A DNA stretch of 64,000 bases from Schmidtea nova. Its lineage: Eukaryota. Positions 19,308 to 48,445 of this stretch are shown one piece after another. The translations under genes were made by a program, and so were the position numbers. The DNA lies in assembly GCA_044892505.1 (NCBI GenBank), contig CM097883.1:394630001-394694000 (forward strand), written 5' to 3'. The notes beneath the pieces were generated by a model. It did no database searches, was not told the origin of the DNA, and saw nothing but the letters and a program-made list of their open reading frames with translations. Each line of letters starts with the position of its first letter. The first letter of the stretch is position 1.

Positions 19308-20510
19308 ATGAAATTATGTTATGCTTAATAAATATTATCTCAAAAAAGATTTAGATTTGTCCCAGTCTGTTTTTGTTCTGACTTGAGTACTATTTTTGTG
19401 ATTTGTTTCAATTATTTTTATTGAATGTAAAAATATTTATTTCTCTGATGTTTAAAAATATTAATGCATGCTTCATTCGCTCTTACAGTTCTCTAACTGA
19501 TGCTTCATGCTCACATCTTTTGAACACTCTTATTTTAAATTTTGAATTTGGTGGTTAAAAATGATATGAAATAAAATCCATTTGATATAAAATTGTCTCT
19601 AAAAACAAAAATAATTAAAATACTATTTATCTAAATTAATAATTACAAATGGCGGTTTAAATTAAAACAATATTGGTCATGATCTTGATGACGTCATAAT
19701 ATGTGCTATGTAAACACTGAGTTATTATAAATGAATTTGTGTGCTACGTAAAAACTAATGATTACGAGTGGTGCCGTCACTATGCCCTACTAGTATCCAC
19801 ACATTAGTGGCATTACCAACGTTTCTTTGCAAAGGGTAACTAGTGGTTAAAATGTGTGCTTTTAATAACCCACTGATATTGTAATAATTTATGATTCAAT
19901 TACCATTAGATACCTGTGTTGGGCCAAAACGCAATTTGTTTTAATAAAACGATAACCCAATAGGTAGAGAACGCGCAAGATTCCATTTTTAACCTTAGCT
20001 TCCATTAAAAATCCAACAATTAAGTGGAAAACACCAAAAGGTGAAGATGAATCAAAACACAGCAACCGGTAGAATGCGCGCTAACTGCGAATTTATAAAT
20101 ATTTTCACTGAAATCTCGAGAAAAATTAAAAGCAGAATGTTTGGAAGCTAGAATAGGCAAAAAACCCATGGAAAGTGCCCATAAAGAACAGAATTTTATC
20201 ATAAAACCTTCAGTACAGAAAAATTAACAAAATTTTAGAAGAAAATTGTGAATTTATCACAAAATTTCACATATAACAATAGAAAGAATTAATATGGATC
20301 GAAAATCATAAATTAAATCAAATCGAACAAATTTCGATTCAAACATAGAAATTTTGAATTAAAATAAATTATTTATAGTTTATAAAAAATTATTATACAT
20401 AAATATGGAATTAATTTTCGGAAAATCATTAGAATTAATTTAGAAAAAATTAAGAGAAAATTCTAGAACAATTTGTTTTATTGCACTACCGGAGATAGAG
20501 AAAATTTGAT

Positions 20511-20538
20511 GGTATATATACCGCCATCAAAATGGCAG
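20511..20538 (+). promoter_or_regulatory. Putative LTR core promoter: TATA-like box plus paired YY1-type motifs
   Basis: GGTATATATACCGCCATCAAAATGGCAGA; conserved in diverged relics at 9703 and 17832 (minus) and repeated at 42927. Confidence 0.55.
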
Positions 20539-23500
20539 ATTTCAGATTTTGTGGAAAAAATTTTTTTGTTTTGCTAGCTAAGAGAATTTGTGAGAAGTTT
20601 TCCGAAAATTTTTATTGCTAACCTAATTAAAGAGAATTTGTACCATTTGCCTCAGAAATTTAGAATTGAAGATATTGTTGAAAGGATTCAATTTATTGGA
20701 AAATCGGAATTGGTCAAAATTTAGTTCCCGGAGCACGAACCTTTTTAGTAGAAAACAAAATTTCTTCCTGGAGTTTGAAATGTTAGGTTTATTTTACTTT
20801 TGTTTTATTTTAAACTGATTCGAGGGGTATGGGATCGTCGGCAATCATGCCTGTCGATCATCCCATTCCTCACGTTCGTATTATTTAAAAATGTATTATT
20901 TTTGTTATTTTATATAATGCAATTATTTTATTTTGATATTATTAAATATTAAAAATTTATTTTATTCAGTTTGATTTTGAAAATATTTTTGTTTATTATA
21001 CTCACAAGTTCCCAAAACACCTAAAATTACTATGAGAATTGTCGAAATAAACTTATGAAATTAAATAAATTTTTTTTTATCTCCCATATCTTCTGACGAT
21101 CCGTCCAGCCTTGGTTGTGCGGATCTGTTAGTAGCCTGGGTGGATCGTTGTCTGATTGGTAATCGGCCAGCCCATATTTCCACTTTAAGGTGAGGCTCAT
21201 ACATCCAAATTCTCGTCATCCCAACTGGGGAATCGTGGTTTGGCCAAGAGCAAGGTTTTGTTATACTAATGATTTGTATTATAATAGAGTATCATATTTT
21301 TATTATCTACATAAGCAATTTCGTAATACAACATAATAATTTCTACCTCATGTCTTGAAATCTAAAATAGGAAATATTATTGATTAAAAAGTCGACTCGT
21401 ACTCACCTTCACCTTCACACTCTCAACAACGTTCATCTCATAAGAAAATGCAAGAAAAATGGATGCTGATGATGAAAAGAAAATTGTTCGAAATAATGCT
21501 CAAGTCTAGAATAATGCTCATGAAGTGAAATAAATTGTGAAACAAGTATTGATTTAATCTGAATTAAAGCTCATTATGGTCTAAATAAGTTTTCCTGTGA
21601 ATCTTGTTTTTCGAGAGCCTGAAATTCCTAAGTGAAGTGTCCCGAAAAATTCGCGTACACTTTGATTGGGAAATTCATGCTCAACAAAACCGAAATTTAC
21701 TTTACTTGATATTAAAAACATTCGTTGAAAAATTTTATAACTTATTTTTATTTTTATCTTTATTTAGCATATAAATTTTTTTTTATTATTGAATGCTTAT
21801 TTAGATTTCGAAATTTATGGATAAAAATTTATTATCATTTCATTTGGATCAGAAATAAAAATTTACTTTTTATTATGTTGAAAAGATTTTATATGGAAAA
21901 AATTGTAAACCAAATTTGGTTCCTAATATTATTAATATATAAAAGATTTTATCATTTCATAAAATTCCCGAGAATTTGAAAATCAAAAGTTATATTAAAC
22001 CCCATAAAATTTATAGATTGAAATTTTATTATTATATTAAAAAACTCTTATCATTTTATAAAAATACGAATTGGAAATTTTATAGAAAATTTTTTGGTTA
22101 ATATATATTCTAAAATCTAAAAAGTTAAAAACCTATCTTATAAAAATTAAAAATTTTATCATTAGTAAATTTTTCATGAAACTATAAATTAAAAAATTCA
22201 TAAAAAGCATTATAAAACTTATTATTATTTTAATTTAAAATTATTATTATTTTAATTTAAAAATATTTTATATAGTGTACTTGAATTATAATATAACCCC
22301 CCCACGATATCTTAAAAATAATGATACATCACTCATTGCAAGAAATCACACCCTTTACACTCAATAGCATCATCCATACTAATACACCAGCAACATACAT
22401 ATAAAACACAATACACACATACACAGTGTCATTCAACAACATCCAACAATCACATACACACCAACAAACCATACCAAAAATTTCACACAGCCATGCTAGT
22501 TAGAATCGTACGTCCAACCACACTCACAAGCACTCAATTGTTTTAAATCACTCATCATACAATCACACACAAACACAATAGTAACAATAGAACACACAGT
22601 CATCATACTACACCTCATCCACCAATAAATCATTTATTCTCATCCAACAGTCAAGTCAACATACAGACACATATAATCACATACAATCTCCTGTACTATC
22701 AATGAAAAATTCATAATAAACCTGTAAAAGTGTATCAACAATCAAACTCGAAATGATAGCATCCCACATCATACATAGACATGCATACCTCCAAAAAGAC
22801 AATGCCAAGGTTTCATCCCTTCAACCACCACAAAATACCATATTCATTTTACTATTTTTTTTTTATAAGTCGGAAACTTCTGGTAAAAATGAGAACCAAC
22901 AACCAAAAAACGATATTTATTTTTAAATAAAATCAATAATAAACTATTAGTCTTTATTATAAAGTAAATTAAGCTTTCATATAAAATCAATAATCACGAA
23001 CAATGGTTATTTTTATTATAAAGAGAATAAAAATCTTTTATCGATCAACGTTGCGCAAATACCGAGGAAAACTGATTGTTTGAGGAGTGAATGAGAAATC
23101 TCAAAATAAATTCCACTCAAAAACAGAAATTTGTGAAGAACTGTTAGAAGATTTCTTCGGAAAATGCTGGATCCTATTATTGACAATCCTGTTCACTTGT
23201 ATTCTCATGGCGCTGACCTTTATAACTTTAGTTGTTGAGAAGTGAACAGATGCTTTCTGAATTCCCGTGTTCAATTGGGAGGATATTGACATAATGTTTG
23301 AGCAATTCATTTAGATATATTCCGATAGAAATCAATAACTGATGCCTTGTAGGAAGATTCGTAAAGGTTTTATCAATTCAGATATTCCTTTGGAACTAGA
23401 TAACTCTATTGGCAGCTTAGGATTGACGTTGGGAGATAAGCACGCATAACATTGAAAATTCCAATAGACGTTTAAAATCCGACGAAAATTACATGTTGGA

Positions 23501-24585
23501 ATAAAAATGTTGAATCGATGGAAGCACACTTTCTTTTGATGTAGAGAGAAGATTTCTGAGGTGATGAAGCGATCCCAGGGAGAAATCCGAGTCCTGAGAA
23601 TATATATGGTAAAGGAAGTGAAGAATAAAACTGAAAGTTTACCTGTAGAGACAACTGGATAGGAGAATTCTATTATTGAGTTCGATATCTGCAAAAATCG
23701 ATAATTATATAACATTAACATATTATAATGTAAACATTAACCAATCAGGTTGCGATATTTACCTGTTTAAAACAATGACCTGGAAAGTGATAATTGTTAA
23801 ATAAATTTTTTTTTTGTTGCTTGCATGAAATGAGGAAATCCAGGAAGAAAATTTTAATATGACAGAATTATTTTTTGTAAGTCGTAAAATAGTCTTTACA
23901 TGAGTAAATAAAACATCTAGGTCATCAAAGTTGTTTCAATTAGCTACATTGTAATCGATGTAGTTGTCAAGGCCGCGGAAAAGTTTTCAAAGAATGAAAA
24001 TATAAAAATTTCAGTAAAATTATAAATGTTATTTTTCTAAGCAAGATAGACAATAGGATTTGAATTTTCGAAAACAAAATTTAATTTAAAATCTGAAAAT
24101 ATAGGGATTTAACTAAAATCAATAGATAATAATTAAAATAAATATCTAGGTAGTTCATATCGATACCGTTGCTAATGCCTCGGCAAATTTTGGAAAAATT
24201 AAATAAAAATAAAAAAATTTAGAAAATTACAATTATGTTTCTGCAAGATAGACATTAGGAATAAGGAATAAGTGAGATATCGTTAAATTTATCGACATAG
24301 AAAATTACAAATTTAGGAGAATCTCGAAACTAATAATAAAAAGTTTAGTTAAAAATCATTAAAAATCCAATACCGTGAATAGATGTGTTAATAAAATGGG
24401 TTACCCTTTTTGATTTCCCGGATTGAGAGTTGATAAGCATATCCGTGAAAAAACTCGCGATCAAATATGTGAGAACTCCTTAACTTATTGCATTAATGAA
24501 TGAACTAATTAATTTTTGTGTATGATGATAATTTAGTAAATATTATACGATAACCAATGTCTTAAATGTTCGAACTTTTCTAGCA

Positions 24586-25158
24586 ATGAACCCAATGCAA
24601 CAACTTGAAGAGATCCGGGCGTTATTGCTAGAAAACGCCAAGCACAACAAAAGGGTCGATGCACGGTTGGCCGAACTGGAAGCCAAGGGCGCATCCAACG
24701 TAGATGCCCTCCAGATAATGACCGGCCGCATGGAAAAATTCCGGGCCCGCTGTCGCGAGATGGAGGCGACATGGTCCGATGGGGAAACAGTGGAGAAGCT
24801 CAAGAAGCAAAATCAGATGCTGCTCCAGCAGGCAGCCGAGGACGCCATGCGATTGCGAGCATGTCGAGTTTCCATGCGGGAGCAGGAGCTCACCAATCAG
24901 AAGCTACAGGTAGATAGCGGTCTTATAACGGCCATTCTGCCAAAGCCCCAATTCCCACCTCACGAGCTGTTCCCGGTGAGGGTGGAGGAAGAGATAGCAG
25001 CAGCCGCGGCTCCAGTCAAACCAAAGCGATGGAGGCCCAGTAAAGGGGCAAGGGCCCGCAACAAGCGCCGGCAAGAAGCGCGAGTTTTGGGGCAATTGAG
25101 GGTCGAGGCCTCAAAAATTGGTAGTCTATCGATCGACCTGACGCAGGCACCCTTTTGA
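24586..25158 (+). CDS. LTR-encoded 190-aa protein: coiled coil, Arg-rich motif and NES-like tail
   Basis: Intact GC-rich ORF inside an AT-rich LTR; preceded by CTTTTCTAG|CA-ATG; contains KPKRWRPSKGARARNKRRQEAR and ends ...IGSLSIDL. Confidence 0.75.
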   Translation: MNPMQQLEEIRALLLENAKHNKRVDARLAELEAKGASNVDALQIMTGRMEKFRARCREMEATWSDGETVEKLKKQNQMLLQQAAEDAMRLRACRVSMREQELTNQKLQVDSGLITAILPKPQFPPHELFPVRVEEEIAAAAAPVKPKRWRPSKGARARNKRRQEARVLGQLRVEASKIGSLSIDLTQAPF

Positions 25159-25623
25159 ACACTTCACATTTTTTTTTTATTGTGATTTTAGTAACAAATG
25201 TTATCATTTTATTATGAAATTATAAGTTTGTAATTGTTTTTTTTTGTATTTGATTGCATGGAGATAAAAGTAAATATAAAGATATTTGAATTAGTATTAA
25301 ACAAACCACCGTCGGCGAAAATGCTCAAATAAAAATCTCGTAATAAACATATACAGTGATAGAACAGATAAATTAAGGGGGACAAAAATGGGCAAGAAAC
25401 CTTCTATCGGTAGCCCTTGGACCCAGGAGATATTCGGTCAATCATAGTTTCGTATTGACGACGCTCACTGATTGCGAATACCCACCCACTTGTTACAGTA
25501 CCAACGTTACATAGTGACGGGTAACAAGGTGGTAATTTCAATGTTTTATGTGTTGAGTTGTTGATGAGAGCCATAGAAACGTCAAGGTCATATTGACGGT
25601 CAACAACCCACCATATAAAAATT

Positions 25624-25642
25624 TGGGGGCTCAGCCGGGATT
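25624..25642 (+). promoter_or_regulatory. Primer-binding site, tRNA-Pro-like
   Basis: TGGGGGCTCAGCCGGGATT matches the complement of the tRNA-Pro 3' end (TGGGGGCTCGTCCGGGATT) with 2 mismatches; lies 10 nt after the LTR end. Confidence 0.8.
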
Positions 25643-26042: not shown

Positions 26043-26234
26043 NNNNNNNNNNNNNNNNNNNNNNNNNNNNNNNNNNNNNNNNNNNNNNNNNNNNNNNNNN
26101 NNNNNNNNNNNNNNNNNNNNNNNNNNNNNNNNNNNNNNNNNNNNNNNNNNNNNNNNNNNNNNNNNNNNNNNNNNNNNNNNNNNNNNNNNNNNNNNNNNNN
26201 NNNNNNNNNNNNNNNNNNNNNNNNNNNNNNNNNN
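26043..26234. other. Assembly gap (192 N) inside the giant element
   Basis: N run; true size unknown. Confidence 1.
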
Positions 26235-28158: not shown

Positions 28159-28641
28159 ATGGAATCGATTGAGCATATTCTACTACGAATCGAGTTGTTT
28201 TTCGATTTTAAAAATGACCCATTGCAGGTGTTGAGCGAGAAACTCGAACGAGTAAATGGAATAAAAGATGAATTATTGTTGAATCCTAGACCACAACCTG
28301 AGAACCTAATAGTGATTGCAGGAATTGTGGGAACAACAAACGATATTTCGTTGGAAACGATTTATGAATTACAACGATTGCGACTGAATAATCCGAATTT
28401 TAATCTGAATATACAAGAATGGATTGGTAAGATCGATAAAATTATGGACAAGCTAGAGAGATCGATAAATCAACAGATCGATTCATTCGAAAGATTTTAT
28501 ATTTGTCGACAAAAAGAAGCGAACATTTTGTTCATGCCATGTGGGCATTTGTGTTATTGCCAGCCGTGCTCTAGAGAAATAAAGCGATGCGTAATCTGCA
28601 AACAGACAATTGATGACAAAATCGTCGTATTCTGTTCGTAA
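28159..28641 (+). CDS. 160-aa protein with C-terminal IAP-type RING (first Cys replaced by Phe)
   Basis: FYICRQKEANILFMPCGHLCYCQPCSREIKRCVICKQTI; TTTTAG directly before the ATG. Confidence 0.85.
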   Translation: MESIEHILLRIELFFDFKNDPLQVLSEKLERVNGIKDELLLNPRPQPENLIVIAGIVGTTNDISLETIYELQRLRLNNPNFNLNIQEWIGKIDKIMDKLERSINQQIDSFERFYICRQKEANILFMPCGHLCYCQPCSREIKRCVICKQTIDDKIVVFCS

Positions 28642-31047: not shown

Positions 31048-31086
31048 AAAAGAAGAGAAAGAAGAAGCGATGATGACACATGTAGC

Positions 31087-33876
31087 ATGGACGAGAAATG
31101 GGATGAATCTACGACAATCAAATTAGAAGAAGTGGCACAAAGATTGTTAACAATTACCATGGAAGAAATGACGAAAATGGATCAAAAATCAGAAGAAAAG
31201 AGGAAATCAGCAAAGCTTGAAAGATCAAGACAAACAGAGATGTCAAAGACCGAACGATTAATCAGTAACCTAAGCAAGAGTGCAGGAAATCAATGTGAAA
31301 CAACAACTGAATTACTAAAATGGGTTATAAAAAATAGTGCAAATATATCAAATATGAGATTGATAGTGAAAGAAATTGAGAAATGCAGACATTTATGCCC
31401 TTGGTATTCAACACAAATTGATGACATCATGAGAAAATGGAAACAACTGGAACAAACAAATGATGATCCACAGATGTGCAGATTGAAAATTCAGTTTCCG
31501 AGTCTAGAAGAAATAAAGATGAATGTATCATTAACAACAAAGATCAAAGAGATAAAAGAGAGATTACCATTCAATTTACCATTTCACTTGAAATATGATG
31601 GAGAATCGCTGGATGATGATATAGAAATCGGTGTAACCCCGATACAAATCGAAACAAGTAATAAATTAACTGTTGATAAAATTGCAGGAAGCGAGTTAAC
31701 CAGAAAAGCGAGAGGTGAAGATAATCCCGAAACAACGATAATTGCAATGATGAAAACTCCAGCTGGACCAACACTTACAATTAACATCAAAGTTAATGAC
31801 GTAAAAGTAGACGCGATGATAGATACTGGCGCAAATATATCAGCAATAGATATCGATATGATACCAGAAATGTTACGGTTATGCATCGAGAAAACATCAG
31901 TAGACGTAATAACATGCAGCAAAGAATCTGTCAATATCGTTGGAAAGATATGGACAGACATCGAATACAGAAATGTAAAAATATCAACTTATTTGACAGT
32001 AATAAAACAACTGGGTGCCTCATGCATTATTGGAACAGACTTAATACCAAAACTGTTAAAAGGATCTGTAATTGATTTGAATACGATGAAGTTGAAACAC
32101 CAAATTGAAGAGAATTGCACAAGAGAAACAATGATAGAACAATCAAATCCAGAAACAACCAGAAAAGGACAAGTATATATGTTCCGAGAGAATAAAAATG
32201 ACGATTGGCTACATCGTATATTAACTGCGAGCAGAAAAGTAAATCAGCCAACAACAATATCTGAACAACCTAAGGTAGTTGACGATGTAAAAATGGAGCA
32301 CCGCAAAAAGATGGAATTGATCATAGAGATTACCAAAGAAATTATGCCAGAATGGTCAAAAAGTAAAAATCTATTCGAAATATTGGGAGGAGTAAGCTTA
32401 ATGGTTGAGGAATATGCCAAAGGAAATGAAACAACAGAAGCGATGAATACCATAAAAGAAAGATTACCAATATTATTTACAATTGCCAGTTTTAAAGATG
32501 AAATACCATTGTATCACGCAATAAAAAGTGGGAATGAACAGAGAATGTTTGAAATCATAAAACTCATGGAAAAGTGTAAACAACATACCAACACGAAAAA
32601 CTGGAAAGATCAAACACCCTTGATGATAGCAATTGAAAAAGGAGGATCCAAGAAACTCATAGCAGAACTGATGAGAACCGGATCAAGTTTTAAAGAAAGA
32701 GATGATAAAAATGAAACGGTGTTATCATATGCAGTGCAAGCAAATAACCATCAAATAATCAAATATATTATGTCAAATGCTACAGAAGAAGATATTGAAG
32801 TGCTCAGTTCAGATCCAAATCCATTAGTAAATGCAGTGAACAAAGATGCCGACGAAACAACAGCAAAAATGATTAAATGGTTACATCCAGTTACGCACGA
32901 AGGAGTGATAAATGTCAATGACAGATTTGAAGACGGTGAAAATATGATAATGAAAAGAGCCATGAAAAGAAAATGGAAAATGTGTAAAACGATTAAAGCA
33001 TTGCTGCAAAGACCTGATTTCAGATTTACAAACAACAAAAAAGAAAAAGAAAGAATTGGATCTAAAAGATATGATATATGTCAGCAAGTCATCATATGGA
33101 AAGAACATATAAAAGAAAGCAGAATTCACCGAAGCTGGAACAATGCCAAAGATGAGATAACCAAGAGAGCAAATATAAAAGCCGAAGCAGATGAAATAGC
33201 TAAAAGATATGAGGAAATAATAAAATTAATAAATGTCGAGGACGACATTTTAATCAGAACCGAGGGTGGTGCTGATGATCACAATGAGCCTGACGATGAA
33301 GATGAAGAGAATGATAACAACAAAACAAAGAAAGATGACAATGAAAGTACCAACAGAAACAATGACAAAGACGAGAAAGATGATGGAAAAAGCAATAACG
33401 ATGAAATTGGGAACAAAAGTGATGAACCCAAGCAAGAAACTTCAAATTATGAAAAACGAACAGCATGTCTACATAAAACTCGAATAAAAGACATAATATT
33501 GCTGATACTGATGCTGTCAACATTGAAAGGAACGGAAGCCGATGATAAAAGAAAACCAGTACAAGTATTAACATCAGGAGCAGATAATGAAGAAGCATGT
33601 TGGAGTAGCATCAATTTGCAAAGTAAAGGAGATAATCCAGTCAAAAGTCAACGAGCAGAAGGAGGAGAAATCCGAATAAATGGATTGAAGCGGGATGCAA
33701 AATACAAAATCTGGGTTTACAAAAGGAAAGCATCACAAGAAATGTTTAGAACACTCGTATGTCAGATAGTAACACATAATGGTTCAAAAGTCACCCAAGA
33801 AGACATAAAAGTCATATTAACCGACGAGCCAGATGAGAACATCAGGATGTCGTCGAAACGCAAGTTGTCAGAGTAA
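31087..33876 (+). CDS. 929-aa polyprotein: ubiquitin-like domain, retroviral aspartic protease, about 4 ankyrin repeats, acidic linker, internal signal-peptide-like segment, FN3-like tail
   Basis: UBL-like aa 130-202 (IKMNVSLTTKIKEIKERL...LKYDGESLDDD...KIAGS). Protease DAMIDTGANISAI (DTG at 31822) and CIIGTDL. ANK motifs LYHAIKSG, TPLMIAIEKG, TVLSYAVQAN, NPLVNAVNK. DIILLILMLSTLKGTEA, then IRINGLKRDAKYKIWVY. Confidence 0.85.
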   Translation: MDEKWDESTTIKLEEVAQRLLTITMEEMTKMDQKSEEKRKSAKLERSRQTEMSKTERLISNLSKSAGNQCETTTELLKWVIKNSANISNMRLIVKEIEKCRHLCPWYSTQIDDIMRKWKQLEQTNDDPQMCRLKIQFPSLEEIKMNVSLTTKIKEIKERLPFNLPFHLKYDGESLDDDIEIGVTPIQIETSNKLTVDKIAGSELTRKARGEDNPETTIIAMMKTPAGPTLTINIKVNDVKVDAMIDTGANISAIDIDMIPEMLRLCIEKTSVDVITCSKESVNIVGKIWTDIEYRNVKISTYLTVIKQLGASCIIGTDLIPKLLKGSVIDLNTMKLKHQIEENCTRETMIEQSNPETTRKGQVYMFRENKNDDWLHRILTASRKVNQPTTISEQPKVVDDVKMEHRKKMELIIEITKEIMPEWSKSKNLFEILGGVSLMVEEYAKGNETTEAMNTIKERLPILFTIASFKDEIPLYHAIKSGNEQRMFEIIKLMEKCKQHTNTKNWKDQTPLMIAIEKGGSKKLIAELMRTGSSFKERDDKNETVLSYAVQANNHQIIKYIMSNATEEDIEVLSSDPNPLVNAVNKDADETTAKMIKWLHPVTHEGVINVNDRFEDGENMIMKRAMKRKWKMCKTIKALLQRPDFRFTNNKKEKERIGSKRYDICQQVIIWKEHIKESRIHRSWNNAKDEITKRANIKAEADEIAKRYEEIIKLINVEDDILIRTEGGADDHNEPDDEDEENDNNKTKKDDNESTNRNNDKDEKDDGKSNNDEIGNKSDEPKQETSNYEKRTACLHKTRIKDIILLILMLSTLKGTEADDKRKPVQVLTSGADNEEACWSSINLQSKGDNPVKSQRAEGGEIRINGLKRDAKYKIWVYKRKASQEMFRTLVCQIVTHNGSKVTQEDIKVILTDEPDENIRMSSKRKLSE

Positions 33877-34026
33877 CCAGTGGAAGGAACAGTGTATATA
33901 GTGTATAAAATTATATTGTATTATAAAAGTAGAATATATTTGTATAATAAAAATTTAAAAATCCAAAAAATGAATACCTCAAAACTGGGAAAAACAAATG
34001 ATAATATTGTGTAATTATTGACAGAA

Positions 34027-34662
34027 ATGAATCCGAACAACGAGAATCAAAGTTATCAAACATCAGTTCCAACGTTCAATGAACCATCAAATCAAACTCA
34101 GTTTCCAGAAGATACCAATATACGAGAAAGAGAAGGGTCACTGCAAACCCCAGTAATCGAAAATGAAACGCAAAATCCAACAATTGACGAAAGAAACCTG
34201 ATATACCAAGTTGAAATTCCACTATTTGATGAAACCATGAACCCAATTCAAACGACATTCGTATTAAATCAACAACCAACAAATAGCCAGACTCAATCAA
34301 TATCAGCTCCGATGGTTTATCAGCAGACAATGACGCAAGAGTTATCATGGAAAACGCAATGTGAATTATTAAGCAGGATGTTGAATCAAGCCTATGCACA
34401 ATGGAAAAACGAACAAGCTTTGTTAACAGAAAGCGTAAACAGAAATTTATTATATCTTGCTAAAATGGAAGAACAACAACAAATGATAATCCAAAAGGAC
34501 CAGAGAATTGAATGGTTAACAAGACATACGGAGTGGCAAACAAACGAAATCAGAAGATTGAATGAGACGCGAGAAGAAGTTAGAGCATGGTATAACTGGT
34601 TAGACAATTTTCCAGAACCGGTTCGAGAACCTGACTCGACGGGAAGGGATGAACTATTATAA
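34027..34662 (+). CDS. 211-aa hypothetical protein (Q/N/T/P-rich N-terminus, coiled-coil C-terminus)
   Basis: Intact ORF; TTGACAG|AA precedes the ATG at 34027. Confidence 0.7.
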   Translation: MNPNNENQSYQTSVPTFNEPSNQTQFPEDTNIREREGSLQTPVIENETQNPTIDERNLIYQVEIPLFDETMNPIQTTFVLNQQPTNSQTQSISAPMVYQQTMTQELSWKTQCELLSRMLNQAYAQWKNEQALLTESVNRNLLYLAKMEEQQQMIIQKDQRIEWLTRHTEWQTNEIRRLNETREEVRAWYNWLDNFPEPVREPDSTGRDELL

Positions 34663-34702: not shown

Positions 34703-36160
34703 ATGAATAAAACTTGGTATAAAGAGCAAAACGAAAAAATTGTAAATTATTTTAGAATGCAGACCGAGAATCAGCAGAAACAAGAGGAATTGATCGAACT
34801 ATATCAGATACTACAGAGACAACGGATAGAACCAACAGAATTTCAAGAAAGATTTAAATGTAAAGTATGTAGAAATTTATTGATAGAACCCAGACAAACT
34901 GAATGTGGATGTCGAATATGCACTAATTGCGTGATGAAAATAATACGAACCAAACAGAAGCTATGTCCTGAATGTGGTGAAGCAATAATAGATCAATTTG
35001 ACCAAACCAGACCAGATATCGCAATGAATCGGGAAATAATGAACGCAGCAACAACCTGTCCAAATAAACCATGTGTATGGAGTGGGCCAATAAAATGGAT
35101 CGCCAAACACCTTTATAATTGTGATGATACGAAAGCCAAATGCAAGTGGTGTAAGGAAGAAATGTTGAAGAAAGTCAAAGACAGTCATGAGGAAATGTGT
35201 GAACAACGACAGGAAATATGTGAGTTTTGCAATGAAACAGACGCTTGGATAGTGTTAAAAGATGAGCATTGGAATATAGAAGAAGGGCAAGTATGTGACG
35301 AGTATGAAGGTAATTGTAATCAATGTGGAATGGCAGAAAACGTGAAGCTAAAAGAACATTGGGAAATATGCGAAAAGAAGCCTACTGCATGTCCACTAAA
35401 ATTATTCAACTGCAAAGTGAGATTACCAAAAGAGGAAATACAAAAGCATGTAGATGAAAATAGTGTAAATCATTTGAGAACCGTTGTGGAAGCTATTGGA
35501 GCAACCGCACTGGTAATTGGAGAAGCCAACACAGAAATAAAATCACACAAAATCATGATACAAGAGATGTTGGATACGAGAGGAAACTTTGAAAGAATAA
35601 GAGAACAAATGATCCAAAAAATGATACTATTAGACCAGAAAATAACAGAAATATCAACAATCCAACAAAGATTGGAAAGCATATTGCCAACAATGGAAGA
35701 ACTACCCGTCACACCCTACTATTGGAAAATCACAGAATTTACAGAGAAATTGAGACTAGCAAGAGAAGGAGGTCAACGTGTATGGACAAGTCCACCTTGT
35801 CACAGTTGGAAACATGGTTACAAGCTTAGATTCAAAGTATATCTAACGGGAGACGGACTAGGAGCCGGAACTCATTTATCTGTATATTTTCAAATATGTA
35901 AAGGAGATTATGACGATTGGTTGGAATGGCCCTACGATTGTGATATAACTATGATGATCGGAACAAAGGAAAACAACGTTCGGGAAGTATTCAGACCAAA
36001 CTTGAAGAAGGTAGAAGCAGCTTATAGGAAGCCGATCGAAAACTACAACGTAGCTGTAGGAAATCCACGTTTTATTGCATTACATTATTTAACCACAGAA
36101 CAATCATTATATTTGGTAAATAATATCCTGTATCTGATTATCGAAGTGAGGAAGCCGTAG
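34703..36160 (+). CDS. TRAF: Full-length intronless TRAF-family protein (RING, TRAF Zn fingers, coiled coil, MATH), TRAF2/3/5-like
   Basis: RING CKVC...ECGCRICTNC...CPEC; repeated Cx-Hx3C fingers; MATH YYWKITEF...GYKLRFKVYLTGDGLGAGTHLSVYFQICKGDYDDWLEWPY; 485 aa from the ATG at 34703. Confidence 0.95.
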   Translation: MNKTWYKEQNEKIVNYFRMQTENQQKQEELIELYQILQRQRIEPTEFQERFKCKVCRNLLIEPRQTECGCRICTNCVMKIIRTKQKLCPECGEAIIDQFDQTRPDIAMNREIMNAATTCPNKPCVWSGPIKWIAKHLYNCDDTKAKCKWCKEEMLKKVKDSHEEMCEQRQEICEFCNETDAWIVLKDEHWNIEEGQVCDEYEGNCNQCGMAENVKLKEHWEICEKKPTACPLKLFNCKVRLPKEEIQKHVDENSVNHLRTVVEAIGATALVIGEANTEIKSHKIMIQEMLDTRGNFERIREQMIQKMILLDQKITEISTIQQRLESILPTMEELPVTPYYWKITEFTEKLRLAREGGQRVWTSPPCHSWKHGYKLRFKVYLTGDGLGAGTHLSVYFQICKGDYDDWLEWPYDCDITMMIGTKENNVREVFRPNLKKVEAAYRKPIENYNVAVGNPRFIALHYLTTEQSLYLVNNILYLIIEVRKP

Positions 36161-36380: not shown

Positions 36381-37550
36381 ATGACTGAAAGGAAGATCGT
36401 GAAAATACGAGAAGATGACAGATCATTCAAAAGTTTATGCGAATTAATGAAAAGAGGTAAAGAAAAGATGTCAAAACCAATTACCTCAGAAATGATTCAT
36501 TGTCGATTTACACGAACAATATCGAATGTTCCTAAGGAAAGGAGTTATGGAAAATTCAAAATTATCGATGAAACGTTGAAAAATGAGAACCGAAGATATA
36601 TAACCTTTTTACAACAAGACAATTTCTATGAAAAGCAATACAGAAAATTCGCCAAAGATGGTTTGTATTTTGCAGGGACAATTGAGAAACCCGATAAAGT
36701 AACCTGTGTATTTTGCAGAATTGAAATAGAACCTTGGAGAATTAACGATGATCCACTTACAGAGCATAGAAAACTTTCACCCACATGCCAGTTTGTGTTA
36801 AAGGCATGCGAAAAACCAAGAAAACCAGCAACAATGAACCACGACGAAGAAGAAAAACCCAAAATAGTAACGATAACTTCAACAGGTCCAGCAAAGATAC
36901 GATTCATAGAAATTGATCCAAAATATACGATTAATGGGAGAACTGACACCTTTGCGGATAAAAAGATGGGTATCAGATTAGCAATAGAAGGTTTTTATGC
37001 AATAAATGAATCAACAGCTGAATGTTCAGAGTGTGGAATACAATATCAATTACCAAAAGAGGAAGGAGAATACCTGAAACACAACGAATATTGTAAATAT
37101 GGAGAAGAATTATATGAAGACGAAGAACCGATCAATTATAAAAACCCAGAGATGCCTGTTAATGAATTATTAGTAGATAAGATATTAGACGAACCACGAA
37201 CTCAAAAGGTAATGGAACGCACCGGCAAAAGCGAAATATTTGTGAAAGAAGTTGTCAGAGAGAGATTGAGAAGAAATGGAGAAACATTTGGATCAACCCT
37301 AGAATTTTTCAAAGCTATGATACAGTTCACCAGAAAATCCCAAGTTGTCAACCCAGAATCATGTATCAAGAAAGTTATATTAAATAAACACCCCTGTTCA
37401 ATTTGTTGGATAAAGAAAGTAGAAGTTATTCATTTACCGTGTGGACATCTGTTAGCATGTGAAAATTGTAGCAATAAATTGAGATTGTGCTCGATGTGCA
37501 GGAAACCGGTCGACAAACGGATCAAGGGATTCCGTTATGCCGACCAATAA
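36381..37550 (+). CDS. IAP: Intronless inhibitor-of-apoptosis protein (BIR, degenerate BIR, UBA-like, RING)
   Basis: BIR CVFCRIEIEPWRINDDPLTEHRKLSPTC (Cx2Cx16Hx6C); second BIR CSEC...HNEYC; UBA-like VMERTGKSEIFVKEVVRERLRRNGETFGST; RING CSIC...LPCGHLLACENC...CSMC. Confidence 0.94.
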   Translation: MTERKIVKIREDDRSFKSLCELMKRGKEKMSKPITSEMIHCRFTRTISNVPKERSYGKFKIIDETLKNENRRYITFLQQDNFYEKQYRKFAKDGLYFAGTIEKPDKVTCVFCRIEIEPWRINDDPLTEHRKLSPTCQFVLKACEKPRKPATMNHDEEEKPKIVTITSTGPAKIRFIEIDPKYTINGRTDTFADKKMGIRLAIEGFYAINESTAECSECGIQYQLPKEEGEYLKHNEYCKYGEELYEDEEPINYKNPEMPVNELLVDKILDEPRTQKVMERTGKSEIFVKEVVRERLRRNGETFGSTLEFFKAMIQFTRKSQVVNPESCIKKVILNKHPCSICWIKKVEVIHLPCGHLLACENCSNKLRLCSMCRKPVDKRIKGFRYADQ

Positions 37551-37684: not shown

Positions 37685-39232
37685 ATGAATATACAACAAT
37701 TGATAGACATCCTAGATCAGGAGATGGCCAAAAGACAAGAGCAACTAAATCAAATGAGAAATTATGAACAAAGAATGGAAGCCATCCAAGAGAACGTTAA
37801 AATGATTGAAAAACGAACCCAAGAGATCAATAAAATAAAAGAGGAAAATGAGGAACTGCGAAAGATAATAATCGACAAGGCGCATGTCGAAGCTGAACTA
37901 GAAAATTATAAACGAGAGTACAGGGAAATGGAGAGAAAACTCGAGCATGAACAACGAAAGTCGGTACCGTTGAAAAATCAAGCAAGATTGAGAAAAGATG
38001 AGCTCGAAACTTATAAAAGAGATACCGAAACAAGGTATGACAACTCCATAAGATTCTATCAGCAGCAACTCGAAAGTGAAAGAAACAGATATGAAGCCAT
38101 GAAAAAGAAATGGGAAAAGTGTCGAGATGAAGCATTTGTTTTGAGAGGACAACCTCAAAAGAAGCTTAAAGTCAGAACAAGAAACATTGAACCTGAAAGC
38201 GAACAAGAAAAGATCATTAGAAAAGTTAAAGCAGAGGCTAGGAAATGGAAACAAGAACACCAAGATTTGTTGGAAATGGCTCGACACAGAAAAATGCTAC
38301 AGGAAGAATTACTAAGACGGAGAGACGTTCAAATCGAGGCTCTGAAAGAGGAATGTCATTGGTATGCAGACATACGTCATGAGGAAACGGAGAAACTCAG
38401 AAAAGAAATATTCCAGTTGAAAACGAGCGGACAGTTCAGAGAAAGAAGCATAAAGCATCAAATAAAGTGGCTAATAGAACAAGCCAGAACATGGAAAAAG
38501 ACCTGGAAAAGAACTCGAGACGAACTACGAGAATTCCCCAAGAAGCTGATGTCAATAAATGAAGCAGAATTGTGGGAAAATGCAGAAAAGCAAGAGATAG
38601 AAAACAAAGAATTAAGACGGCAAATTCAATTAAAAACCGAATGGAATCAAAGGAGAATGAAATTTACCAGGAATCAAGAAGCTCGCATCAAATATCTGGA
38701 ATTCGAAAACAGGCAATATGACCAACAGAAGAATATGGATGATCGAAGTATTGAAGAACTGACAAGAGAATTGACTATTGCAAACCGTGAAGTCAACGGA
38801 TATCGAGGAACAAATACTCATAAAGACATTGTTATTCAACACCAGCGACGGCAGATAGAAGAAACAAAGGCCGAATGTGAGAAAGCGATCCAGCAATCGC
38901 AGTATGAAATTGAAATGGCTATCCAAAGTTTGGAAGAAAACCGCCAAAACTATGAAAGAGAGATTGAAAGATTGAAAAATATGGAAAATACGAGAGAGCT
39001 CGAGATAGAAAAAGAACAGCTGAGTGAAGAACTCGATTATATGACCTATTTGCTAGATGAAGAGATAGAAATCTCAAGAACTTTGCGAGAGAGAGTTCAG
39101 AGCCTACAAAATCAACCTCCAATCATTCTATGGCCACTATATCCAACACCAATACAACCTGTACATTTGGAGCCAGAAAATCCTCAAATCGAAGATGAAG
39201 GGTTCGGAGAAATTGAAGAGACGTTTGTATAA
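37685..39232 (+). CDS. 515-aa long coiled-coil protein of unknown function
   Basis: Intact E/K/R/Q-rich ORF with heptad character; TTTTCAG|A precedes the ATG. Confidence 0.8.
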   Translation: MNIQQLIDILDQEMAKRQEQLNQMRNYEQRMEAIQENVKMIEKRTQEINKIKEENEELRKIIIDKAHVEAELENYKREYREMERKLEHEQRKSVPLKNQARLRKDELETYKRDTETRYDNSIRFYQQQLESERNRYEAMKKKWEKCRDEAFVLRGQPQKKLKVRTRNIEPESEQEKIIRKVKAEARKWKQEHQDLLEMARHRKMLQEELLRRRDVQIEALKEECHWYADIRHEETEKLRKEIFQLKTSGQFRERSIKHQIKWLIEQARTWKKTWKRTRDELREFPKKLMSINEAELWENAEKQEIENKELRRQIQLKTEWNQRRMKFTRNQEARIKYLEFENRQYDQQKNMDDRSIEELTRELTIANREVNGYRGTNTHKDIVIQHQRRQIEETKAECEKAIQQSQYEIEMAIQSLEENRQNYEREIERLKNMENTRELEIEKEQLSEELDYMTYLLDEEIEISRTLRERVQSLQNQPPIILWPLYPTPIQPVHLEPENPQIEDEGFGEIEETFV

Positions 39233-39507
39233 ATAATAAAAGTGAATGTAAAGTGTAAAAAGAAATTGAAATGTAGTGTAAAAAGAAAACGTTGTAAAGA
39301 AATGTAAAAAGAAAAAGTTGTAAAATATATCCAAAAAAAAAAAAAATTTAAATAAAAAGCAGAAAAAAATAAAAAATTCAATAAAAATTAGAAAAAATGA
39401 AAAACAAATAAAAATTAGAAAATGATAAAAATGATAAAAATGATAAAAACAAAAAACAAAATTAATAAAACTGTAGAAAAGAGTTATGAAAATTCAAATT
39501 ATAGAAA

Positions 39508-40083
39508 ATGAGACTATTGAAGCAAAGATCAGAACCAGAACAACAAACGATATCAAAAGAAAGATTCAAAAAATGGAAAAGAGCAACAGAGCAATATTAT
39601 CAAGACCAAATAGACCAATTGAAGGAAGTAGTGAGCAAAGATAGAAAATATATCGCACAAATGGAGCAAGAGTGCGAGACGATGGAAATAATCAAGCGAG
39701 AAAATTATCTATTTCGCCAACAAAATGGTCTCACTCAAAAATATTGCGACAGACAGAAGCAAGAGATTGACAGACTCAAAAGGGAAATAAGCAGTGAACA
39801 GAACACTGTTAATAAAAGGAGAATTAAGATCGAGTCATTACAACGATCCTTGAAGAGCAAACAGAAAAAGATTATAAAAAGAGAGAAACAGATAATAAAG
39901 TTGAAAAGTGAAATCATAGAAGCAAAATTCGATACGTTCAAAGCAAAGAAAGTTGTAGAAATTAAAACGGCAGAAAACTACGTCCTCAAAGAGAAAAGGC
40001 GAAAAGAAGCAGACGAGATTGCAAAAATGGGTAACTGGAAGCCAGAAAGTCCGTTAAAGCTAAATGAAGAGACGAAAGAATAA
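39508..40083 (+). CDS. 191-aa basic coiled-coil protein
   Basis: Intact ORF; TTATAG|AAA precedes the ATG. Confidence 0.75.
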   Translation: MRLLKQRSEPEQQTISKERFKKWKRATEQYYQDQIDQLKEVVSKDRKYIAQMEQECETMEIIKRENYLFRQQNGLTQKYCDRQKQEIDRLKREISSEQNTVNKRRIKIESLQRSLKSKQKKIIKREKQIIKLKSEIIEAKFDTFKAKKVVEIKTAENYVLKEKRRKEADEIAKMGNWKPESPLKLNEETKE

Positions 40084-40178: not shown

Positions 40179-41003
40179 ATGAACAATCTAATGAGGATCA
40201 CAACAACCATCATGATATTTATAATTACAAACTGCCGAAGCGAAGAAGCATTGAGTCAATGTCAAGCAAGCCATCCATTTAGAAGATCCGATAGCATTTG
40301 CGTAAGCTATCAAGAAATTTGTATCAGCAGAAATGAGGAGTGTCAACAGATCCAACTACAATGTCAACAATGTCCTAAACCCAGAGAAGATTCAATCACC
40401 ATCCTTAAACAATTGAGAAATGAAACTCAACAATTAATCCAATTACAAATCTCCTTAACCAAAAGAAACAATCTTCAACTAAAGAAATAGCTCGAAAACC
40501 AATCATCCTTCAAACAGTTAACGACCGAACTAAAGAAATTGAGCAAGTTAATAGAAAAATCTCTAAATAATAAAGATGAAGTTAATGAGGAAAGATCAAG
40601 TTTCACAGAGGAGTTAAATCAAAAACTAAAAACTCAACTTCATCAAACCGAGAGAATTATAAAGCAATTGATATTACCCGAAAAGCAAAAGGAGATTATC
40701 CCTAAACAAGGATCAACCAACGAAGACGTCAGAGACCGAGAAGCAGCCATCACAGTCGTTCTACAAGGCATCAGTCTTTTCGCGGTCATAATGATCCTTA
40801 GCATGGTTGCATCAATCGGATTAGAGAAAATGAAATTAGAGAAAGCGAAAATCCAGCTGAATACCATCAAACGAATCACCCTTGAAGACAACAACCCGGC
40901 AAAAAATTTTCTAAGATCAGTATTTGAAGATCCAGTTCCAAGACATCCTAATCCTGAGACATCTACAACCTCGGTGCAGATGAATTACTTCTATAAACAA
41001 TAA
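40179..41003 (+). CDS. Type I membrane protein 1 (274 codons) interrupted by one in-frame TAG at 40488-40490
   Basis: Signal peptide MNNLMRITTTIMIFIITNCRS and Cys-rich/coiled ectodomain. ORF-track entries 40179-40490 and 40539-41003 share a frame with no other stop. TM helix AAITVVLQGISLFAVIMILSMVASIGL. Confidence 0.75.
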
Positions 41004-41205
41004 TACGATTCTATTCCCTTTTTGACAATTCATGTATTTTCTTCCAGTCATTCAACCTATCTATCTATTTGTATTCTCATCTTTAACAATATTTCATCAT
41101 CATTTAAATCATAACCCTGTGTAAAATCGTAACGCCCCTGTAAATAGCAAAAATTGTTTATCGTCATTATTCAATTTCTCTCTATTAGAAAAATAAAAAT
41201 CAACA

Positions 41206-42000
41206 ATGAAATCGTACCGAGAAGTTTTTCTAATCGCCATGATCACAACAATTTGTTGTCATCTTGAAGAGACCCGGAAATCAAGCCAATTAAACCCAAA
41301 TCAACCAGATAATAAAGAATCATTTGAAATCTCTAACAACAAACAACTATCCGAAAAGATCGAGCAAGCCAAAATCGAAATTCAAAATACCCTTTTCAAT
41401 CAAAATGATGAAATTTCAAGTCTAAAAAGAATAGCAAGGATAATATTAGCCGATTTAGCGATCAGAGATACATTCGAGGATATTTTTGATAATGATCGAG
41501 AAACCCGTGACGCAATAAAAAGTCTCACCAAAGAACTTAAAAGGAATGTAGGCAAGTTAATCGATCAGCTAACGATAAATTCATCAAGCCCGAAATGTCT
41601 GAAACAAATCCAGCAAATTCATCATAACCTGTCCCAGTAGATTTCCGAAGTAGGAAACCAAACGGCACAACAACTGAGAAAGGCTTATTTCGAGAACCTG
41701 GCATTTAAGAATAAAATCCACGATCACGTAAAAGAGATATCGAAACCGGATAACAATCAAGACAGAGACAAGTGCAGAGTATCCCTCCTATCATCCGAAC
41801 GAATTCTCGGGATCTGCCTGATCATCCTTAACTTTTTCTTAATAATCGGAATTTGTGGTATAATATGGTTAGGCTTGACCGCCACAAGAATAATGAACAA
41901 CATGACCTCCAAACAATCCCGAAGAGAAGATGACAAGAAACAGTTGATCAATTCCGAGTCATTCAAACTATTCCAGTCGAAGATCCAACCAATTCAATAA
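41206..42000 (+). CDS. Type I membrane protein 2 (264 codons) interrupted by one in-frame TAG at 41638-41640
   Basis: Signal peptide MKSYREVFLIAMITTICCHL. Manual translation past the TAG stays open for 119 codons to TAA at 41998-42000 and includes TM ILGICLIILNFFLIIGICGIIWLGL. Confidence 0.75.
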
Positions 42001-42332: not shown

Positions 42333-45300
42333 TGTTGGGCCAAAACGCAATTTGTTTTAATAAAACGATAACCCAATAGGTAGAGAACGCGCAAGATTCC
42401 ATTTTTAACCTTAGCTTCCATTAAAAATCCAACAATTAAGTGGAAAACACCAAAAGGTGAAGATGAATCAAAACACAGCAACCGGTAGAATGCGCGCTAA
42501 CTGCGAATTTATAAATATTTTCACTGAAATCTCGAGAAAAATTAAAAGCAGAATGTTTGGAAGCTAGAATAGGCAAAAAACCCATGGAAAGTGCCCATAA
42601 AGAACAGAATTTTATCATAAAACCTTCAGTACAGAAAAATTAACAAAATTTTAGAAGAAAATTGTGAATTTATCACAAAATTTCACATATAACAATAGAA
42701 AGAATTAATATGGATCGAAAATCATAAATTAAATCAAATCGAACAAATTTCGATTCAAACATAGAAATTTTGAATTAAAATAAATTATTTATAGTTTATA
42801 AAAAATTATTATACATAAATATGGAATTAATTTTCGGAAAATCATTAGAATTAATTTAGAAAAAATTAAGAGAAAATTCTAGAACAATTTGTTTTATTGC
42901 ACTACCGGAGATAGAGAAAATTTGATGGTATATATACCGCCATCAAAATGGCAGATTTCAGATTTTGTGGAAAAAATTTTTTTGTTTTGCTAGCTAAGAG
43001 AATTTGTGAGAAGTTTTCCGAAAATTTTTATTGCTAACCTAATTAAAGAGAATTTGTACCATTTGCCTCAGAAATTTAGAATTGAAGATATTGTTGAAAG
43101 GATTCAATTTATTGGAAAATCGGAATTGGTCAAAATTTAGTTCCCGGAGCACGAACCTTTTTAGTAGAAAACAAAATTTCTTCCTGGAGTTTGAAATGTT
43201 AGGTTTATTTTACTTTTGTTTTATTTTAAACTGATTCGAGGGGTATGGGATCGTCGGCAATCATGCCTGTCGATCATCCCATTCCTCACGTTCGTATTAT
43301 TTAAAAATGTATTATTTTTGTTATTTTATATAATGCAATTATTTTATTTTGATATTATTAAATATTAAAAATTTATTTTATTCAGTTTGATTTTGAAAAT
43401 ATTTTTGTTTATTATACTCACAAGTTCCCAAAACACCTAAAATTACTATGAGAATTGTCGAAATAAACTTATGAAATTAAATAAATTTTTTTTTATCTCC
43501 CATATCTTCTGACGATCCGTCCAGCCTTGGTTGTGCGGATCTGTTAGTAGCCTGGGTGGATCGTTGTCTGATTGGTAATCGGCCAGCCCATATTTCCACT
43601 TTAAGGTGAGGCTCATACATCCAAATTCTCGTCATCCCAACTGGGGAATCGTGGTTTGGCCAAGAGCAAGGTTTTGTTATACTAATGATTTGTATTATAA
43701 TAGAGTATCATATTTTTATTATCTACATAAGCAATTTCGTAATACAACATAATAATTTCTACCTCATGTCTTGAAATCTAAAATAGGAAATATTATTGAT
43801 TAAAAAGTCGACTCGTACTCACCTTCACCTTCACACTCTCAACAACGTTCATCTCATAAGAAAATGCAAGAAAAATGGATGCTGATGATGAAAAGAAAAT
43901 TGTTCGAAATAATGCTCAAGTCTAGAATAATGCTCATGAAGTGAAATAAATTGTGAAACAAGTATTGATTTAATCTGAATTAAAGCTCATTATGGTCTAA
44001 ATAAGTTTTCCTGTGAATCTTGTTTTTCGAGAGCCTGAAATTCCTAAGTGAAGTGTCCCGAAAAATTCGCGTACACTTTGATTGGGAAATTCATGCTCAA
44101 CAAAACCGAAATTTACTTTACTTGATATTAAAAACATTCGTTGAAAAATTTTATAACTTATTTTTATTTTTATCTTTATTTAGCATATAAATTTTTTTTT
44201 ATTATTGAATGCTTATTTAGATTTCGAAATTTATGGATAAAAATTTATTATCATTTCATTTGGATCAGAAATAAAAATTTACTTTTTATTATGTTGAAAA
44301 GATTTTATATGGAAAAAATTGTAAACCAAATTTGGTTCCTAATATTATTAATATATAAAAGATTTTATCATTTCATAAAATTCCCGAGAATTTGAAAATC
44401 AAAAGTTATATTAAACCCCATAAAATTTATAGATTGAAATTTTATTATTATATTAAAAAACTCTTATCATTTTATAAAAATACGAATTGGAAATTTTATA
44501 GAAAATTTTTTGGTTAATATATATTCTAAAATCTAAAAAGTTAAAAACCTATCTTATAAAAATTAAAAATTTTATCATTAGTAAATTTTTCATGAAACTA
44601 TAAATTAAAAAATTCATAAAAAGCATTATAAAACTTATTATTATTTTAATTTAAAATTATTATTATTTTAATTTAAAAATATTTTATATAGTGTACTTGA
44701 ATTATAATATAACCCCCCCACGATATCTTAAAAATAATGATACATCACTCATTGCAAGAAATCACACCCTTTACACTCAATAGCATCATCCATACTAATA
44801 CACCAGCAACATACATATAAAACACAATACACACATACACAGTGTCATTCAACAACATCCAACAATCACATACACACCAACAAACCATACCAAAAATTTC
44901 ACACAGCCATGCTAGTTAGAATCGTACGTCCAACCACACTCACAAGCACTCAATTGTTTTAAATCACTCATCATACAATCACACACAAACACAATAGTAA
45001 CAATAGAACACACAGTCATCATACTACACCTCATCCACCAATAAATCATTTATTCTCATCCAACAGTCAAGTCAACATACAGACACATATAATCACATAC
45101 AATCTCCTGTACTATCAATGAAAAATTCATAATAAACCTGTAAAAGTGTATCAACAATCAAACTCGAAATGATAGCATCCCACATCATACATAGACATGC
45201 ATACCTCCAAAAAGACAATGCCAAGGTTTCATCCCTTCAACCACCACAAAATACCATATTCATTTTACTATTTTTTTTTTATAAGTCGGAAACTTCTGGT

Positions 45301-48029: not shown

Positions 48030-48445
48030 CCTGAGTGATTTTGTAATTCACACAATGGGACTACTGACAGTCTGTTCATATATACCTGCTAGCAAATAAT
48101 TTTAAAAATGCTTGTTTTTTGGTCATTACTACGAAATAGTTATAAGTGAGAAATGTAATTCAATTTATTAACACAACAAAATCTTAAATAAAAATCCGTG
48201 ACAATTTTCAAGCATTGAGCAAAAATTATCTACTCCTGATTTAAAGTGACTATTTTATGATCACACTGACCGATTGTTGGTTGATCCAAATGAATTCGTT
48301 TGTTTACGATCAATCTCTTAATTAAATTTTGTCAATTCATAGTTATTATTAAAATTTTGCTACAACCAAGAATTAATTAATAATAAAAAATTTTTGATAA
48401 AAGAAATTAACATAATTATCTTTTTTCACCTTTGATCTTTTTTTA

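Follow-up and report, generated by a model that had tools for sequence, protein, structure and literature searches.

Planarian genomes contain many Burro elements. As described in the available text of a review (PMC6431247), Burro/GYPSM1 are giant planarian Gypsy elements of >30 kb, which encode a protease and accessory domains within a 4,900-aa polyprotein, and one Burro element reportedly aids stem cells as well as regeneration (Lee et al. 2026, as summarized in the accessible part of PMC13465017). For the question of how a 30-kb multi-gene retroelement expresses all of its genes as well as a full-length RNA, no explanation was found in the literature searched. The nef and foamy virus bel genes overlap the LTR. 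A protein gene inside the LTR, and hence present twice per element, is described for the MMTV U3 ORF (sag/naf) in the accessible text of PMC9412291. Retroviral Rev-like proteins combine helical oligomerization and an arginine-rich motif with a target in env or the LTR, the beta- and deltaretroviral response elements lying in the LTR region (available sections of PMC5568270). The aORFs of LTR retrotransposons, according to the available text of PMC7264820, are conserved and family-less, some being nuclear or SMC-like, and a regulatory role comparable to that of retroviral accessory proteins was proposed for them. The words “ORFs within the LTRs” in PMC6673714 were considered as a precedent for an LTR-borne gene and set aside, as they belong to a methods sentence on whole-element ORF prediction. 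The available text of the Burro literature searched, including PMC8532177, PMC13465017, and PMC11410931, yielded no account of a gene in the LTR or of acceptors for individual ORFs; Grohme et al. 2018 and Lee et al. 2026, which lay outside that scope, may annotate them.

The window, which is the whole 64-kb stretch of DNA analyzed here, contains an element of 28.1 kb whose LTRs form a perfect direct repeat with 0 mismatches. The features of the element are as follows.

19913..19916, + strand: left target-site duplication CCTG (4 bp, from the sequence)
19917..25613, + strand: 5' LTR, 5,697 bp, TG..CA ends (direct-repeat comparison)
25624..25641, + strand: primer-binding-site-like 18-mer, 10 nt after the LTR, presumably tRNA-Pro-like
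28159..28641, + strand: RING ORF, 160 aa, with YAG directly before the ATG (Pfam)
31087..33876, + strand: 929-aa ORF with aspartic protease, ankyrin repeats, and a weak SUMO-like match (Pfam)
34027..34662, + strand: 211-aa ORF, no family (Pfam)
34703..36160, + strand: TRAF-like ORF with RING, zf-TRAF, and MATH (Pfam)
36381..37550, + strand: IAP-like ORF with BIR and RING (Pfam)
37685..40083, + strand: pair of ORFs of 515 and 191 aa, charged and coiled-coil-like, without a significant family (Pfam)
40179..42000, + strand: two ORFs, each with a hydrophobic N-terminus, a single TAG within the frame, and a second hydrophobic segment further on (by eye)
42333..48029, + strand: 3' LTR, identical to the 5' LTR, without a classical polypurine tract just upstream (direct-repeat comparison)
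48030..48033, + strand: right target-site duplication CCTG (4 bp, from the sequence)

As in Burro/GYPSM1, to the extent covered by the available text of PMC6431247, the element approaches 30 kb (slightly less than the quoted >30 kb), has 5.7-kb LTRs with TG..CA ends and a 4-bp duplication, lies in AT-rich host DNA, and encodes protease, ankyrin, MATH/TRAF, BIR, RING, and coiled-coil segments among its accessory ORFs, the SUMO-like match reaching only E 0.021. Unlike Burro/GYPSM1 in the same text, it carries these domains in separate ORFs and not in a 4,900-aa polyprotein, and the review text available mentions no LTR ORF. No Gag-env-PR-RT-RH-IN polyprotein was found in the element. The Pfam analysis of 11 element proteins assigned domains to four, and the other seven, including the LTR-borne ORF190 described below, had no match better than E 0.007; RT, RNase H, integrase, Gag knuckle, BCL2, and env were without a match in the element. 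The controls were two Gypsy elements of the ordinary type (3426-8212 and 11972-16173), which have broken frames, contain RT and integrase pieces, and are unrelated to the large element. A tblastn search with seven Gypsy gag/pol pieces from the window gave 0 matches to the element at E ≤ 0.1, under conditions in which the RT and IN pieces detected each other; its six frames also lack YxDD and CCHC motifs. Because of these two blank results we consider the element to be probably non-autonomous, and read it as a young Burro-like Gypsy derivative; the identity of the LTRs points to either a young insertion or an assembly effect. The gene content suggests a triclad flatworm as the host.

Both the primer-binding-site-like sequence at 10 nt from the LTR end (25614-25641) and the absence of a polypurine tract at 42280-42332 are atypical for an LTR element. 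No tRNA genes were found in the 64-kb window, and an Rfam search yielded two chance matches only. The leader contains a gap of 192 N (26043-26234), the true size of which may differ from the N count. A 21-bp tandem array of 14 units (29577-29975) can be read as an open heptad repeat on both strands, and is in frame with the ORFs at 30739 and 31087, with stops between. In the frames at 40179-41003 and 41206-42000, the hydrophobic N-terminus is followed after ~100-145 aa by the single TAG and by 120-170 more open codons that include the hydrophobic segment; the same break in both frames could reflect programmed read-through, giving secreted and anchored forms.

Both LTRs contain ORF190, an orphan gene of 190 codons. 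The features relevant to it are listed below.

24569..24583, + strand: candidate 3' splice acceptor, with 9 of 12 pyrimidines followed by TAG, 2 nt before the ORF190 ATG (from the sequence, use putative)
24586..25158, + strand: ORF190, GC-rich orphan gene, copy in the 5' LTR (intact frame, GC, homologue, silent-site bias)
24592..24936, + strand: two long predicted helices, aa 3-63 and 66-117, with AxCRxxExTW (AlphaFold2, P0001 alignment)
25018..25083, + strand: basic motif, aa 145-166, with K+R at 9 of 17 positions, RPxKxARAR, and NLS patterns from aa 147, at the start of helix 153-179
25096..25140, + strand: NES candidate of the preliminary description, aa 171-185, not supported
25328..25347, + strand: two AATAAA hexamers, candidate poly(A) signals, 170-185 nt after the ORF190 stop (from the sequence)
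25375..25613, + strand: terminal ~240 bp of the LTR, apparently common to many short LTR-like units without ORF190 (contig loose ends)
44002..44123, + strand: extended, imperfectly paired hairpin within the 5' third of the LTR, candidate RNA target (other copy at 21586-21707; z -4.5, 0 of 200 shuffles)
47002..47574, + strand: ORF190, identical copy in the 3' LTR (ORF listing, LTR comparison)

A preliminary description of this DNA had noted an intact ORF of this length, about twice as GC-rich as its surroundings, some 450 bp from the LTR 3' end and present in two copies, and all of this was borne out: the frame is intact, its stop lies 455 bp before the LTR end, and both LTRs of the repeat carry it. 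The GC content of ORF190 is 0.56, with all three codon positions raised (0.63/0.42/0.63), versus 0.26 in the 500 nt upstream, 0.23 in the 172 nt after the stop, 0.29 in the LTR without ORF190, and 0.31 in the window, and the two ORF190 copies are the only places in the 64 kb where 300-nt windows reach a GC of ≥0.5. The GC step coincides with the reading frame, beginning at the ATG and ending at the stop. Third-position GC is 0.63, compared with 0.21-0.38 in 16 other frames of the window (0.30-0.38 in nine internal ORFs and 0.21-0.37 in seven frames outside the element), and the A content is 28%, compared with 36-49% in 10 internal frames. A structured RNA as the source of this composition was rejected, as the RNA of the ORF folds like its shuffles (z 0.01). 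The preliminary description had suggested a foreign origin, which the results neither favor nor oppose; no foreign donor was found in the sequence and homologue searches. The length of the ORF alone is weak evidence for a gene, because an equally long open frame occurred in 3.9% of 3000 Markov samples with the composition of the GC-rich stretch, and the second copy says nothing on conservation, because the two LTRs are identical. An overlapping 102-codon frame (24609-24914), without a start context of its own, displayed neither constraint nor a family and was dropped.

ORF190 is a real gene under selection, as two independent lines of evidence, a silent-site bias among copies and a protein homologue, P0001, support this conclusion. 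The copies were compared using contigs of four runs from one study, which represent at most three samples and share ~60% of their words; 40 of 179 copy differences were listed, 12 of them in ORF190, together with 12 of 35 indels. Among the 12 listed differences in ORF190, nine were silent third-position changes, against an expectation of 23-30% (P 2e-4 to 2e-3), and the remaining three were R-K, T-A, and a third one that is silent if linked to its neighbor in the same codon. Read in four other frames, 1-2 of the 12 would be silent, and in the antisense frame, whose third positions coincide with those of ORF190, the number is 7. No stop occurred among the 12 listed differences, from which a rough dN/dS of 0.06-0.10 was obtained, and no indel among the 12 listed of 35 fell inside ORF190; one contig in one run skips 447 nt of it. 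Since the 12 differences run in both directions (seven towards A/T and five towards G/C), the GC-rich composition appears to be common to diverged copies rather than decaying. In each of the four runs, ORF190 had a higher contig depth than the flanking sequence; this measure cannot rank the parts, AT bias could contribute to it, and it was not counted.

P0001 is a protein of 157 aa with 34% identity to ORF190 (E 6e-4), the sole protein returned among 1.84 billion representatives, and is encoded on contigs of 638 and 549 nt. The ORF190/P0001 alignment scored 138, while two sets of 2000 shuffles reached maxima of 70 (full) and 91 (local), and the other ORFs of the element scored 26-72, arguing that the match does not result from coiled-coil bias. 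The helical core with AxCRxxExTW and the basic part with RPxKxARAR are kept in P0001. No further relatives were obtained among near-length proteins, either in a word-indexed search (0 of 519 candidates at E ≤ 1) or in a search with a three-sequence alignment, which returned P0001 alone among 5125 candidates. When metagenomes were scanned, the alignment gave 212 pattern matches and P0001 gave 598, and a viral-contig scan gave 124, none of which was confirmed. These blank searches say little, because a control search with the IAP ORF also returned no relatives (0 of 739), which indicates that the collections barely cover the lineage. No paralogy between ORF190 and the internal ORFs of the element was detected. 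With P0001 as the query, the ESM Atlas ranked first a cluster named “uncharacterized protein zgc:113691” (0.95, 157 of 256 features shared), followed by generic coiled-coil clusters; the former is a lead only, and a literature search on zgc:113691 returned nothing relevant. On the basis of their sequences, we regard ORF190 and P0001 as a new small protein family.

AlphaFold2 with the three-row alignment predicted helices at aa 3-63, 66-117, and 153-179 with a disordered linker, the long helices having a pLDDT of mostly 80-94 and the model a global pTM of 0.26. The two N-terminal helices probably form an oligomerization coiled coil: the long helices are predicted with good local confidence, and the coiled coil proposed earlier is deduced from a moderate heptad pattern, in which only 11 of 18 and 8 of 14 a/d positions are hydrophobic in the best register. 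A homodimer prediction of aa 1-120 had a score of 0.04 and was counted neither way. The Arg-rich stretch of the preliminary description was located at about aa 145-166, where the net charge is +10 over 22 aa (+9 in P0001); within 17 aa there are six Arg in ORF190 and four in P0001, which is modest for an arginine-rich motif. A monopartite NLS pattern is present in both proteins and a bipartite one in ORF190 only, so that ORF190 displays, as a sequence pattern, an arginine-rich motif that doubles as an NLS. The hydrophobic-spaced terminal peptide, LRVEASKIGSLSIDL, was also found, at aa 171-185, but its reading as an NES did not hold. Profile searches and structure prediction placed ORF190 in no known family or fold, related or unrelated to retroviral regulators. 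Homology to Rev, Rex, or Rec received no support from Pfam (E ≤ 1), PDB sequences (E ≤ 10), or BFVD or PDB folds, and the fold search of BFVD and PDB gave nothing at E ≤ 0.001, a weak test given the pTM of the model. Hepatitis delta antigen and bZIP were dropped as identities, as a Pfam match was absent and the domain order was wrong.

The element also bears a pattern of candidate splice acceptors. A YAG lies within 5 nt before the ATG in 8 of the 11 + strand ORFs of ≥100 aa. The frequency is lower for the remaining ATGs of the element (64 of 472, P about 1e-5), for ATGs with an AT-rich context (33 of 431), and for ORFs outside the element (0 of 9). Three ORFs of the element deviate: the one at 30739 has no such YAG, and at 34703 and 41206 the distances are 26 and 17 nt. 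In a related contig (one per run), the sequence upstream of ORF190 is unlike that of the element, and the TAG is kept at the same place. Because 8 of 11 ORFs have a near-ATG acceptor against a background of about 13%, the element resembles, over 28159-41206, a series of cassettes that are each spliced on their own, in agreement with the multiply spliced genome suggested in the preliminary description. No strong splice donor was found on the + strand of the LTR and leader, which contain six weak candidates. In the spacers, counted as the stretches after 10 ORFs (two with chosen end points), TGTA occurs 41 times versus 9.6 ± 2.9 expected (maximum 19 in 2000 shuffles) and TGTANATA eight times versus 0.5 expected, five of these at 15-17 nt after internal stops; we take TGTANATA to resemble CFIm or Pumilio sites. 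The ORF190 trailer has only two TGTA and no TGTANATA, and the spacers contain AATAAA/ATTAAA at the chance level (20 versus 19.8 expected). The spacers between 31087 and 41206 measure 40-275 nt, and flatworm operons have ~100-bp spacers and spliced-leader processing, as stated in the available text of PMC8629364; the cassette pattern would fit cis-splicing from the leader and spliced-leader operon processing equally.

The AT-rich 5' third of the LTR contains three long hairpins at 20759-21733 (43175-44149), with z values of -3.1, -2.0, and -4.5 against 200 shuffles, which are possible RNA elements or small-RNA precursors. The hairpin at 44002..44123 was the best of 89 windows scanned, three of which had z ≤ -2.5. 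At the other end of the LTR, each listed site has ~70-120 contigs whose match is confined to the final ~240 bp or to part of it, with unlike sequence on both sides and a TGTTG LTR-like start, which suggests an abundant short LTR-like unit of ~240 bp without ORF190. If this short unit is a complete LTR, an argument built on mixed contigs, the start site and R would lie there and ORF190 would be situated in an expanded U3, like MMTV sag/naf. The protein itself is unrelated to sag/naf, and its gene may lie in either U3 or R. ORF190 resembles the aORFs in the available text of PMC7264820 in being conserved and without a family; it is unlike them, as they lie in the internal region, mostly from pol to the 3' LTR, in that it is located in the LTR on the sense strand, with its own candidate acceptor and a sharply different GC. 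Its location in the LTR is unusual, though probably not the only case of its kind.

Our best explanation, held tentatively and at somewhat less than an even chance, is that ORF190 is a nuclear, RNA-binding regulator of the processing of the element's own RNA. In this reading, ORF190 is an accessory gene carried by the enlarged LTR of a Burro-like Gypsy element that is young and non-autonomous. It would most likely be translated from a processed mRNA of its own, spliced onto the acceptor before the ATG either in cis from the leader or in trans by a spliced leader. The long N-terminal helices would form an oligomer, the basic motif would mediate nuclear entry, and the RPxKxARAR helix would bind element RNA, so that ORF190 would shift the processing of a transcript rich in acceptors and 3'-end motifs towards long or full-length RNA. 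It is a candidate for such a role because an element with about ten acceptors still requires full-length RNA, and a putative nuclear oligomer with a conserved basic helix would suit the task. In lentiviruses, early regulators escape the A-rich bias. By analogy, ORF190, with its 28% A, might be an early regulator of this kind, and the logic would be Rev-like, an early, compositionally distinct gene licensing the A-rich late RNA, with no CRM1 route implied. Like Rev, Rex, Rec, Rem, and Rej in the available sections of PMC5568270, ORF190 has a predicted helical region that may serve oligomerization, a basic motif, a probable expression from spliced RNA, and an element that needs unspliced RNA. 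Unlike them, it has neither homology nor a credible NES, places ~115 aa of helix ahead of the basic motif, and lies entirely within the LTR of an invertebrate retrotransposon. The Rev/Rex-like layout put forward earlier is retained in part: the constrained gene, the helical N-terminal two thirds, the conserved basic motif with its NLS, and a part order compatible with the available text of PMC5568270 stand, and the NES and any homology are not supported. The earlier proposal of a trans-acting export or regulatory factor is compatible with the basic motif, the NLS patterns, and the spliced-element pattern, and has no support from a CRM1-type NES or from Rev/Rex/Rec homology. ORF190 may work like Rev, and its membership in the Rev family is without a sequence or fold match.

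The narrower form of this idea, in which ORF190 is the equivalent of Rev, Rex, or Rec and connects the unspliced RNA of the element with CRM1 by means of a leucine-rich NES at its C-terminus, is very doubtful. The order of helix, basic motif, and hydrophobic tail is that of nearly all Rev-like proteins in the available text of PMC5568270, I178-x2-L181-x-I183 fits the last three NES positions, and the stable LTR hairpin lies where beta- and deltaretroviral response elements are found. However, no strict NES class matched the tail, a relaxed match within the last 30 aa was also present in 59% of 2000 shuffles, and the two strict matches in ORF190 lie in amphipathic helices (aa 7 and 42), at least one such match being found in 96% of 5000 shuffles; the tail is also poorly conserved in P0001, and no Rev/Rex/Rec profile or structure was matched. 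The basic motif alone does not choose between RNA and DNA, because a basic helix may equally serve to bind DNA, nucleoli, or importins. Another reading of ORF190 is a transcriptional transactivator or anti-silencing factor that would bind DNA or chromatin as a dimer, act on the LTR, and be expressed, like MMTV sag/naf, from a promoter inside the LTR. This reading is unlikely, though by no means far-fetched, with foamy-virus Tas and deltaretrovirus Tax as functional parallels for LTR transactivation; set against it, no DNA-binding family was matched, and the protein lacks a clear acidic activation tail, its net charge ranging from -3 to +8 in 20-aa blocks. The domain order of bZIP proteins is the reverse of a zipper placed before a basic region, and the helix and basic part of ORF190 are thus in the opposite order to bZIP.

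A host-directed effector, which would bind a host protein or a component of a small-RNA pathway or act in the nucleolus, is an unlikely explanation too. The element is full of host-modulating genes (IAP, TRAF, and RING), the Burro1 IAP was reported to shield stem cells from apoptosis (Lee et al. 2026, via the accessible part of PMC13465017), and the LTR location would let solo LTRs retain the gene; ORF190, however, has no recognizable host-derived domain, unlike the IAP and TRAF genes, and its conserved basic motif indicates nucleic acid binding or nuclear import. It is highly improbable that ORF190 is a passenger, that is, foreign DNA captured recently, or else something that merely accompanies a GC-rich DNA or RNA element, with no protein role. 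The third-position GC far outside the range of the 16 other frames, the 3.9% of composition-matched samples with an equally long frame, and the contig that skips 447 nt would be in keeping with a passenger, but the silent-site bias, the protein-level homologue, the bounding of the GC step by the ATG and the stop, and the lack of excess RNA structure all argue against it. Returning to the preferred reading of an RNA-processing regulator, a more far-reaching version would be a polycistronic Burro-like element that releases every gene as a separate mRNA at an acceptor of its own, possibly by means of the host spliced-leader machinery, and in which ORF190 is an early switch that binds an LTR hairpin and frees the full-length RNA from processing, a circuit like that of complex retroviruses that evolved independently in an invertebrate retrotransposon, with a new protein family; we consider this combination quite unlikely as a whole.

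The locus offers two testable handles on the expression of such giant elements, namely the candidate acceptor before most ORFs and a conserved, compositionally distinct, probably nuclear LTR protein. If ORF190 regulates the fate of RNA, it would represent a Rev-like solution in an element that is not a vertebrate retrovirus; if it is no RNA regulator, it would still be a new small protein family, under selection and in an odd location. ORF190 is also the copy that would persist in solo LTRs. Elsewhere in the window, remnants of the LTR 5' end, 69-70% identical, are present at 9098-9758 and 17830-18065, neither of which reaches ORF190. To the right of the element, near-perfect palindromes occur at 48439-48630 and 49152-49477, one of them beside an N gap, and they are either MITE-like or assembly-related.
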